From a virus (taxonomy: Duplodnaviria; Caudoviricetes): a DNA stretch of 28,023 nucleotides. Under the pieces are notes generated by a model that was given only the letters and a program-made list of their open reading frames with translations, did no database searches and was not told the origin of the DNA. The stretch is from IMG/VR virus record IMGVR_UViG_3300032274_000036, positions 1-28,023 of that record; one strand, written 5' to 3'. The translations under genes and the position numbers were made by a program. This document shows positions 607 through 1,925 of the stretch, in pieces; position 1 is the first letter of the stretch, and each line of letters starts with the position of its first letter.

Positions 607-1134
607 CTATGCTACTTCTAAGTCAGGCCGGTTAGTTTTAATGAACTTCTTAGCTTTACTAAGGGCCTCAGTTGCAGCGTTGTCTGCCGGTTTCTCTTTA
701 TCACTAGAATATTTGTTGACCACCCGAAGGATAGCCTTCCACATATCATCCGACTGGAAGACATGCTCTTCATCGTTGTTCGCAGACAGGTCAAAGAAGT
801 CAGCCTTCAAGGCACCTTCCAAGTCCAATTCGACTGCGTTCTTACTCTTGTCTTTGACTAGTTTCTTCACATCGAGCACACCACTATCATTCTTAGGATG
901 CGTGATCGGTGCGAAAGCAGTGAGATAAGTGAGATAACCTGAACGCTTCACCACACCACTGCGTGACTTGTCATTCAAGCTATCAAGGATACGCTGGCAC
1001 GGACCAAGGTTGCCGCTTTCAGCAAACTCAACCATAGCCAAGTGACTTGCCTTGACATAGTTCTTGCGTGCGTTAGCGAGCTGACCTTCAGCCCTAGTGA
1101 CCAGTGCGACTACTTGCTTTTCACGTGTTGACAT
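607..1134 (-). CDS. Hypothetical early protein (175 aa)
   Basis: Long ORF, AAGGAAGG RBS, protein-like composition; no recognisable motif. Confidence 0.8.
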   Translation of the reverse strand: MSTREKQVVALVTRAEGQLANARKNYVKASHLAMVEFAESGNLGPCQRILDSLNDKSRSGVVKRSGYLTYLTAFAPITHPKNDSGVLDVKKLVKDKSKNAVELDLEGALKADFFDLSANNDEEHVFQSDDMWKAILRVVNKYSSDKEKPADNAATEALSKAKKFIKTNRPDLEVA

Positions 1135-1140
1135 TTGTTA

Positions 1141-1204
1141 TAGTCCTTCCTTGTTGCCTCTACACTGGCCACTATTGACCAGTGTCAATACAATTGAGGG
1201 ACTA
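1141..1204 (-). promoter_or_regulatory. Long irregular hairpin over the RBS of the 175-aa gene; RNase III-site-like
   Basis: Minus RNA: ACACUGGUCA-AUAG-UGGCCAGUGU (10 bp, one U-G) above an internal loop, with basal UAGUCC/GGACUA. Confidence 0.55.
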
Positions 1205-1207
1205 CGA

Positions 1208-1645
1208 TGCACACACGAGAGCACAACCACAAAGTTAAACCCATAAGCGCACTAGGTTCACACCCTAAAGCAGGTAACTCTACGTTGTTCACAGTTGGCA
1301 CATGCTAGACACACTTAGCTTGTTAGCTGCGTCACCATGACGTAGGTCCGTAGAGGCCCACTAAACTAAGCTCACCCTAGTTTCCTTGCGTCCTTGGGCC
1401 TATGATGCACGCTGTCACCTAGCACGTTTACACTTACTAGCCATGCAACTAAGGCTTGGACTTCATTGCTTGGGTTTATAGACCTAGGCATTTCACTTAC
1501 CTACGGTCACACCAACGCTTACGATATGATCTCCTACGCTGTAACAGTGTAGGCTACTTAGCACTTATTAGGTGCTAAGATGTCTCTACTGTTTCAACGA
1601 TGGGCCGCGTTGGTCACGCTAACCCTATGATGATGGCACGTTGCC
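1208..1645 (-). ncRNA. Candidate large structured non-coding RNA (family not recognised)
   Basis: No ORF of 60 aa or more in an otherwise densely coding genome. Nested helices: 1611-1620/1220-1229, 1482-1487/1252-1257, 1467-1474/1263-1272, 1443-1450/1293-1301, 1417-1425/1302-1310, 1395-1400/1355-1360, 1376-1383/1363-1370. Their wobbles are G-U on the minus strand. Confidence 0.6.
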
Positions 1646-1646
1646 G

Positions 1647-1862
1647 CTACCGTGCCTTACGATGTATCCTTGCGGCAGTCTTCCCGTTGTATTCCCATTT
1701 GTGAGACGTTGCAACTAAGCCTATTTGACCTATATCACGTCCCATGTAGGAAGTCAAACTAGGATGGCAACTTAGGGTGCCAGCGTTGCGCCCTTTGGAG
1801 ACAACGCTAGACAGCATTGCTGCTCTCTTGGCTTGTCTTTCTCTTTTGCCTAGTCTAGCCAT
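1647..1862 (-). CDS. Small basic Arg/Lys-rich protein (71 aa), first gene after the leftward promoter
   Basis: AAGGA RBS; N-terminus MARLGKRERQAKRAA, C-terminus ARIHRKAR. Confidence 0.7.
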   Translation of the reverse strand: MARLGKRERQAKRAAMLSSVVSKGRNAGTLSCHPSLTSYMGRDIGQIGLVATSHKWEYNGKTAARIHRKAR

Positions 1863-1896: not shown

Positions 1897-1925
1897 AATG
1901 TAGGGCATCGGAGTCCCATAGTCAA
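1897..1925 (-). promoter_or_regulatory. Sigma70-type leftward (early) promoter
   Basis: Minus strand TTGACT (1925-1920), 17-bp spacer, TACATT (1902-1897), with AT-rich sequence upstream. Confidence 0.7.

Follow-up and report, generated by a model that had tools for sequence, protein, structure and literature searches.

The window, by which we mean the whole stretch of 28,023 nucleotides analysed in this study, is a 28-kb contig from a phage, and its plus strand encodes terminase, portal, capsid and tail proteins. The large terminase shares 59.6% identity with its counterpart in Lentibacter phage ICBM1, a member of the Zobellviridae, and judged by the terminase sequence the phage of the window is Zobellviridae-like. 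On the minus strand, a run of small early-type genes extends leftwards from about position 1900 in the order promoter, gene 1, long gap and ORF2 (Table 1). As a scan of the window returned 7 promoter-like sites against 4.9 expected, the single sigma70-like match in front of gene 1 is weak when taken alone; promoter-like sites were found 30-100 nt upstream of gene 1 in 9 of the 17 loci that carry this gene.

Table 1. Features of the early region, in minus-strand order, with positions in the window
Feature	Position	Strand	Details
Sigma70-like early promoter	1897..1925	-	TTGACT-17-TACATT; about 35 nt before gene 1; 9/12 matches
Gene 1, Arg-rich 71-aa ORF	1647..1862	-	syntenic homologues in 17 distinct loci
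Whole non-coding leader between gene 1 and ORF2	1135..1646	-	512 nt
H1, small hairpin	1602..1625 (hairpin 1619-1607)	-	GCGU-GACCA-ACGC; probability 0.78
HA, long irregular hairpin	1537..1599	-	contains the 1557-1579 hairpin of the first-pass annotation
Pc, 5' strand of the long-range stem closing the core	1516..1524	-	constrained folds
Motif M	1470..1515	-	UUGG/CCAA outer stem; UG opposite AUAAAC internal loop; inner hairpin GACC..GGUC
D2, irregular hairpin arm	1390..1461	-	minimum-energy fold; inner helices 0.70
D3, hairpin	1363..1383	-	AAACUAGG/CUUAGUUU; probability 0.95; named in the first-pass annotation
D4, long irregular 3' arm of the core	1269..1362	-	fold
Pc, 3' strand	1241..1249	-	best partner of the 11 nt preceding M; then GUUUAA
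Long hairpin pairing the Shine-Dalgarno of ORF2	1140..1205	-	GUAGUCC/GGACUAU probability 0.99
ORF2, 175-aa helical protein, phrog_1448 family	607..1134	-	model pLDDT 92.5

Further features surround this region. A C-rich tract at 2171-2200 on the minus strand resembles, by eye, the opening 50 nt of the terminal repeat in ICBM1, and the physical left end of the genome therefore probably lies near 2210, the contig being permuted. The early operon includes a gene for a pentapeptide-repeat protein (179 aa), located at 1-177 of the window and complete in L006 (4955-5494). The phage of the window and the relative closest to it both have, in the early operon, a gene for a large protein (L006 7458-8522, L007 2025-4277) whose N-terminus we take from its motifs to be of the GHKL-type ATPase kind.

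Gene 1, ORF2 and the gap between them

A first-pass annotation of this DNA had placed a long gap in the early gene run at 1208-1645. The gap does exist on the minus strand, its extent being 1135-1646. As that annotation had also held, the region appears non-coding, with no ORF of at least 50 aa inside it; ARAGORN finds neither a tRNA nor a tmRNA there, and the gap has no match in Rfam, the best E-value in the window being 1.7. With the Rfam 15 covariance models, no hit attained the gathering score either in the window or among the leaders of 15 relatives; this comparison covers put, ROOL, GOLLD, OLE, tmRNA, RNase P, introns and ribozymes to the extent that they are included in Rfam 15.

Blastn of the gap against cultured phages gave no match, and nhmmer and blastn against the first relatives retrieved an identical copy only. 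Since direct DNA searches were thus empty, relatives were sought through the flanking proteins, using ORF2 homologues, a gene-1 peptide pattern, small-terminase homologues and a second ORF2 subfamily, which together yielded 17 distinct gene-1 loci. Seven of these (L004, L007, L008, L009, L046, L058 and L135) came to light independently of the peptide pattern, so that the conserved start of gene 1 is not just a product of the search. In 12 distinct loci, namely the window, L004, L007, L008, L009, L046, L058, L011, L022, L018, L135 and L128 (the ORF2-family gene of the last being assigned by eye), gene 1 is followed by a gap of 356-512 nt and then by an ORF2-family gene. In the L012, L013, L017 and L131 groups a gap of about 100-180 nt leads from gene 1 to another gene that is not ORF2, and the sequence of L132 ends before the gene downstream of gene 1. 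The long gap accordingly tracks ORF2 and not gene 1, as all four gene-1 groups devoid of ORF2 have the short gap only. The flanking genes of L044 are close to those of L011, and this locus has neither a gene-1 nor a motif M match (see below). In L012, L013 and L015/L017, a second promoter-like site, one copy of M and a gene resembling a homologue of ICBM1 gp5 replace the long RNA and ORF2. Matches to the tmRNA family and to tRNA lie near the early region at L130 254-345 (-) and L132 1808-1879 (+).

Members of the gene 1 family are 67-96 aa long and carry 6-11 arginine and lysine residues among their first 25 (lambda N has 7). The structure model shows a helix at residues 6-25, a middle part of low confidence and a helix at 60-70, with a mean pLDDT of 65. 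Gene 1 has no match in Pfam, PHROG, PDB sequences or the atlas, and a single query of cultured phages found none that carries it. When its profile was compared with lambda N, the resulting probability of 0.46% (E-value 0.13, 10 columns) amounted to no homology. The gene-1 pattern matched 20 times in bacterial genomes; on inspection none of the matches had a gene-1-like continuation, and they were treated as chance and counted as background in the motif scan described below. A basic ORF upstream of ORF2 in Vibrio phage BA6 was likewise considered, and is not detectably related to gene 1.

ORF2 belongs to phrog_1448, a large family of early genes with 486 clusters (50% identity, E<=0.001) distributed over Autographiviridae, Zobellviridae and others, with many cultured lytic podophages among them. 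A phrog_1448 gene is often the first gene after a long leader. Fold searches with ORF2 returned no informative solved structure, the best Z of 6.7 being to designed helical repeats; its model matches uncharacterised viral proteins only, the atlas offers unnamed viral clusters only, and a search of the ORF2 alignment against genomes gave no match.

Folding of the leader and the repeated motif M

Neither the arginine-rich gene 1 nor the repeated motif M had been noticed in the first-pass annotation. M has the general form N-G-U-G, an inner hairpin of free length and R-U-A-A-A-Y-C-N', with GUG standing opposite the RUAAAYC internal loop at its core. In the window it is part of the minimum-energy fold, with probabilities of 0.47 for the outer stem and 0.93 for the inner one. 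Canonical M is present in 13 of the 17 gene-1 loci; it was not found in L131 or in three of the 12 long gaps (L008, L009 and L128). An extra copy occurs in gene 1's own 5' leader in seven of the 17 loci (L011, L022, L018, L046, L135, L012 and L132), the window having no copy upstream of gene 1, and in the short-gap loci a copy lies downstream of the internal promoter-like site.

Covariation was assessed over 19 copies of M, picked and excised by hand; these include related pairs, and the counts therefore overstate independence. Pairing is canonical at the first variable outer pair in 17 of the 19 copies (permutation mean 9.0, with 0 of 5000 permutations reaching 17), at the outer pairs taken together in 45 of 57 cases against 8-21 when slid, and at the inner pairs in 49 of 60 against 17-30 when slid. 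The L017 copy contains one G-C to C-G swap. Within the loop, G.A is seen in 19/19 copies and U.U or U.C in 18/19. A descriptor of M gave 15 distinct matches in 38.6 kb beside gene 1 as compared to a single one in 1.67 Mb of other sequence (141 sequences, both strands), although the descriptor was tuned on these same loci. L135, which was obtained after the descriptor had been written, has gene 1 and two copies of M, one of them directly after a promoter-like site. A motif-first scan of viral contigs returned 120 loci with 71 distinct matches, 67 inside long ORFs and four non-coding; one of these four is L135 and three lack a gene-1 or ORF2 match, so the scan added no new family member and no convincing M apart from gene 1. 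The small hairpin H1 is a short form of M, having a U-A pair followed by G.A, and is found at the start of the gap in 5 of 16 regions scanned (the window, L004, L007, L008 and L018). Considering the co-occurrence of gene 1 with M, along with the arginine-rich helix, M is likely the site at which the gene-1 protein is predicted to bind, and that the protein does bind it we judge to be rather probable. A divergent gene-1 homologue is found in L128 (1792-2176), where the long gap seems, by eye, to carry a different repeated loop with CCCGAA before CC; this may possibly represent a co-varying pair of protein and RNA. Literature searches, in which Fremin 2023 was covered in part, returned no description of the element. 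Three M strings had no match in three of the six supplements of that study (PMC10690425), and M may be present among its candidates.

Sequences of the long gaps scarcely align except in the pairs L046/L058 and L011/L022. A MAFFT alignment of eight gaps (43% column identity) was unusable, and helices were therefore anchored on motif M. The stem Pc, of 7-11 bp, is found in all nine anchorable loci with differing stem sequences, and is individually significant at 0.05 against shuffles in five of them. Its 3' partner is located 54-71 nt upstream of the ORF2 start in eight of the nine loci, while the window, with its extra hairpin, has it at 106 nt; in most relatives the sequence that follows is ACAUAU/AUAUAU-like. 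When Pc and M are enforced, at a cost of 0-2.2 kcal/mol in 9/9 core domains, a common plan appears, in which Pc closes a junction whose arms are M as the first, one or two in the middle and a long one on the 3' side. The excised core domains measure 241-307 nt. One or two arms occupy the D2 position in all nine loci folded, and the long 3' arm is predicted in all of them with no conservation of its sequence. In the fold of the full-length window, Pc has a probability of 0.001 and costs 7.3 kcal/mol (-179.6 vs -186.9), as the segment with its 5' strand (1536-1519) pairs preferentially with 1268-1253; the arms enclosed are the same with either pairing. The 5' arm of M extends Pc in several free folds, which suggests that M is only marginally stable.

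Outside the core, an HA-like long hairpin was observed in L004, L007, L008, L009, L046 and L058 and was not seen in L011, L018 and L022. At the other end, a hairpin over the ribosome-site region of ORF2 is predicted in the 12 loci folded; by alignment, the top of the one in the window (1185-1162) is an insertion relative to L007.

This architecture differs from the one first drawn for the gap. All seven helix strings named in the first-pass annotation occur in the sequence. Its nested long-range helices, however, have pair probabilities of 0.0 (1620-1611/1229-1220), 0.001, 0.001, 0.0 and 0.026, and enforcing the whole set gives -166.1 kcal/mol against the minimum of -186.9, a cost of 21 kcal/mol, while disrupting motif M as well as the hairpin domain at 1461-1390, which have the backing of relatives. 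For GGCCCA/UGGGCC, the copy scored at 1606-1601 has a probability of 0.023 and is probably not the one that was meant, the copy near 1400 being assessed in the constrained fold only. The supposed C(UACG)G loop is a helix strand, CUACGG, in the minimum-energy fold. Of two 5' hairpins, that at 1579-1557 is stable (0.99), whereas 1553-1533 forms the 3' side of a single long helix spanning 1599-1537. Of the helices first drawn, only the hairpin at 1579-1557 and D3 hold.

Over the originally proposed span, folding is better on the minus than on the plus strand (z -2.15 vs -1.55), the effect being modest, and over the full gap the values are -3.15 and -2.27. Three control stretches of 360 nt from the window gave z-scores of -0.8 to -1.7, and folding energy alone is therefore weak support. 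Five gaps (L046, L058, L007, L008 and L018) have z-scores of just -1.1 to -1.7. Early leaders of loci lacking gene 1, taken as the 360 nt upstream of their first early genes, also fold below shuffles, with z < -2 in seven of nine: L044, L075, L040, L024 (LUZ19), L026 (BA6), L027 (phiAB1) and L003 (ICBM1) range from -2.3 to -4.7 and have no M. These may be separate structured leader families. They also fit the idea that the gap is a generic leader that protects or processes the transcript of the first-injected DNA, with specificity confined to M and only loose selection for folding elsewhere, an idea in keeping with the weaker z-scores and with arm lengths and sequences that vary freely. A generic leader would nevertheless hardly keep Pc in position in 9/9 anchorable loci despite unrelated stem sequences, or place M always in the first arm, and we consider this explanation very unlikely.

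The bias between strands bears on a further alternative, namely a DNA-level element near the genome end such as an origin or a signal for ejection or packaging. Judging by eye from the C-rich tract, the distance from the gap to the physical left end is probably no more than about 1 kb. However, folding favours the sense strand over the antisense in 8/8 gaps and then in three of four further ones, Pc uses G.U pairs on the transcribed strand in 5/9 loci, and the non-canonical pairs of M described above recur from copy to copy, all of which speak for RNA and leave a DNA element highly improbable. The proposal of an undescribed structured RNA on the minus strand is borne out by synteny and covariation, even though most of the helices first assigned to it are not, and in our judgement there is little doubt that the structured RNA is real.

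Possible function of the module

No sigma70-like promoter was found inside any of the 11 gaps examined and no minus-strand terminator inside the gap of the window, so that the RNA is most simply a part of the first early transcript. Given these observations and a structure that reaches the ribosome site of ORF2, a cis-acting element fits better than a free-standing ncRNA, the two options that had been offered for the gap; that its action is antitermination, as also suggested there, is something we infer. Our preferred reading, to which we would assign a probability of roughly 0.45, is that gene 1 and the gap constitute a cis-acting protein-plus-RNA antitermination module with a logic like that of lambda N/nut or conAn. 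It is drawn from the position of M beside promoters and its occurrence in several copies, together with an arginine-rich first gene and a conAn-type layout. The gap would be transcribed by host RNA polymerase within the first early transcript, presumably as one RNA, and the gene-1 protein would bind motif M on the growing transcript. M would become more stable on binding; its outer stem is only marginally stable and would compete with the extension of Pc. The gene-1 protein and the folded core would then act in cis (cf. conAn2, put) and, most likely, keep the host polymerase from terminating as it passes along the early genes. In L012, L132 and L135, where M overlaps or abuts the start of gene 1, the same binding would likely also autoregulate the translation of gene 1.

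The output step, antitermination itself, appears to be the weak point of this reading. Downstream terminator-like sites are not enriched, with 17 in 42.2 kb of gene-1 operons as compared to 13 in 38.4 kb without gene 1, these being counts of intrinsic sites from a scan to which Rho-dependent sites are invisible. No conserved boxA was found, a one-mismatch match occurring in 3/17 loci (at -76, +251 and +311) when scored against the lambda-type sequence only, by which a host-specific boxA could be missed. A terminator right after gene 1 was also considered and found no support, as the hairpins there mostly have no free U tract. Also counting against this reading are the association of the long gap with ORF2 and not gene 1, the folding of leaders devoid of gene 1, the three of 12 long gaps without canonical M, the absence of an M copy upstream of gene 1 in the window and the low probability of Pc in its full-length fold.

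The lack of terminator enrichment would suit translational control, in which the gene-1 protein on M represses its own synthesis and opens or closes the ribosome-site hairpin of ORF2 and the polymerase is unaffected. This would explain why M overlaps the start codon of gene 1 in L012, abuts the Shine-Dalgarno in L132 and L135 and lies just upstream of the ribosome site of the next gene in L013, and it could make use of the near-isoenergetic alternative partner of M's 5' arm and of the hairpin predicted over the ORF2 ribosome-site region in the 12 loci folded. In the long gaps, however, M is about 240-335 nt away from the ORF2 start within a separately closed domain, and as Pc ends before the ribosome-site hairpin, no predicted helix joins the two. 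The upstream copies of M in L011, L022, L018 and L046 begin 54-72 nt before the start codon, beside the promoter, and the pairing that buries the Shine-Dalgarno has a value of only 0.26-0.81, calculated without a shuffle control. On balance, translational control as the sole output seems rather unlikely to us.

Another explanation starts from the self-contained nature of the core, which is flanked by long irregular hairpins and could be cut out, for instance by RNase III at HA and at 1205-1140, to give a discrete RNA, possibly a particle with ORF2 and/or the gene-1 protein aimed at a host target. The association of the long gap with ORF2 in 12 loci and its absence from 4/4 gene-1 groups without ORF2 would agree with this, as would several ORF2-family genes without gene 1 that also follow non-coding leaders of 350-600 nt. 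Yet the missing internal promoter and terminator argue against a discrete RNA, the primary sequence of the core is hardly conserved beyond M, the ORF2 homologues of LUZ19, BA6 and L061 directly follow another gene, and the ORF2 fold shows no sign of RNA binding; we regard a processed RNA as distinctly unlikely.

Returning to antitermination, we would put forward, still more tentatively, that the module is an unrecognised bipartite system of processive antitermination, with a new family of arginine-rich adaptors, a new internal-loop motif, a core of 250-300 nt and no lambda-type boxA, serving early expression and possibly transcription-coupled entry of the genome. Such a small module of one 70-aa protein and one 45-nt RNA would help in understanding how these uncultured phages seize the transcription of the host within minutes of the onset of infection. 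Were the output translational instead, gene 1 and M would make an undescribed pair of arginine-rich peptide and RNA, and would call attention to phrog_1448.

Relation to known systems

By the features compared here at the level of sequence, the module belongs to neither lambda N/nut, conAn, put nor any Rfam family, while sharing traits with several of them. In pLS20, according to the available sections of the conAn paper (PMC8191782), the ConAn1 protein gene is followed by an RNA of 260-600 nt that is 30-40% conserved and has a closing inverted repeat. The present loci are alike in having a protein gene at the start of the operon followed by a poorly conserved intergenic RNA (260-600 bp there, 356-512 here) and an inverted repeat around a central region, which measures 238 bp in conAn and about 220-280 nt in these phages. 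However, Pc has 7-11 bp as against the 20 bp of conAn2, the equivalence of the two being our inference. The conAn systems described there belong to Gram-positive conjugative plasmids with a ConAn1 of 172 aa, whereas gene 1 is a phage gene whose arginine-rich product has 67-96 aa. Operons of the conAn type hold many terminators (23 predicted in pLS20), unlike gene-1 operons, and a repeated protein-site motif is absent from the conAn description in those sections. Tblastn of gene 1 and ORF2 against plasmids gave no match; ConAn1 orthologues are only 13-33% alike. The same portion of that 2021 paper (PMC8191782) names put and EAR as the only other RNA-based antiterminators.

The resemblance to lambda N and to Gp17 of mEp021 lies in the first early protein, which is small, mostly unstructured and provided with an arginine-rich helix at its N-terminus, as reported in the accessible parts of PMC8632103 and PMC11893012, where the N-type systems are those of temperate coliphages. 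As in lambda, where nutL precedes N, a promoter-proximal RNA site occurs in several copies and lies upstream of the protein's own gene in 7/17 loci here. H1 also recalls lambda boxB in its stem closed by U-A and its five-base loop G...A, although this resemblance extends to 5/16 regions with loops of different length, and the main motif M is an internal loop. Unlike lambda N/nut, gene 1 has no sequence homology to N and the loci show no conserved boxA of the lambda-type sequence scored, and the main site is a 2x6 internal loop within a large multi-arm RNA instead of a hairpin loop. The Gp17/nut system of mEp021 is non-lambdoid, as far as the parts of its description at hand go, and here the phage is Zobellviridae-like.

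With HK022 put, as described in the available portion of PMC9378689, the module shares a promoter-proximal structured RNA in an early phage transcript and a proposed cis action on the RNA polymerase of the host; put has two stems and works without any phage protein, whereas the present RNA is far larger and travels with a protein gene. ROOL, GOLLD and OLE, in the partial accounts used here, are similarly multi-arm RNAs of several hundred nucleotides in phage DNA. The present RNA differs from them in having no Rfam match (window and 15 relatives), very little primary conservation and no promoter or terminator of its own, and in being fused to a downstream ribosome site. HIV Rev/RRE combines an arginine-rich peptide with a multi-stem RNA of about 350 nt that has a long-range closing stem and a non-canonical internal loop as its primary site, and functions in eukaryotic nuclear export; its likeness to gene 1 and the gap is an architectural analogy only, with no homology implied. 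If the module is the bipartite system tentatively put forward above, the logic of N-like and conAn-like systems would be joined in one module in Zobellviridae-like phages.
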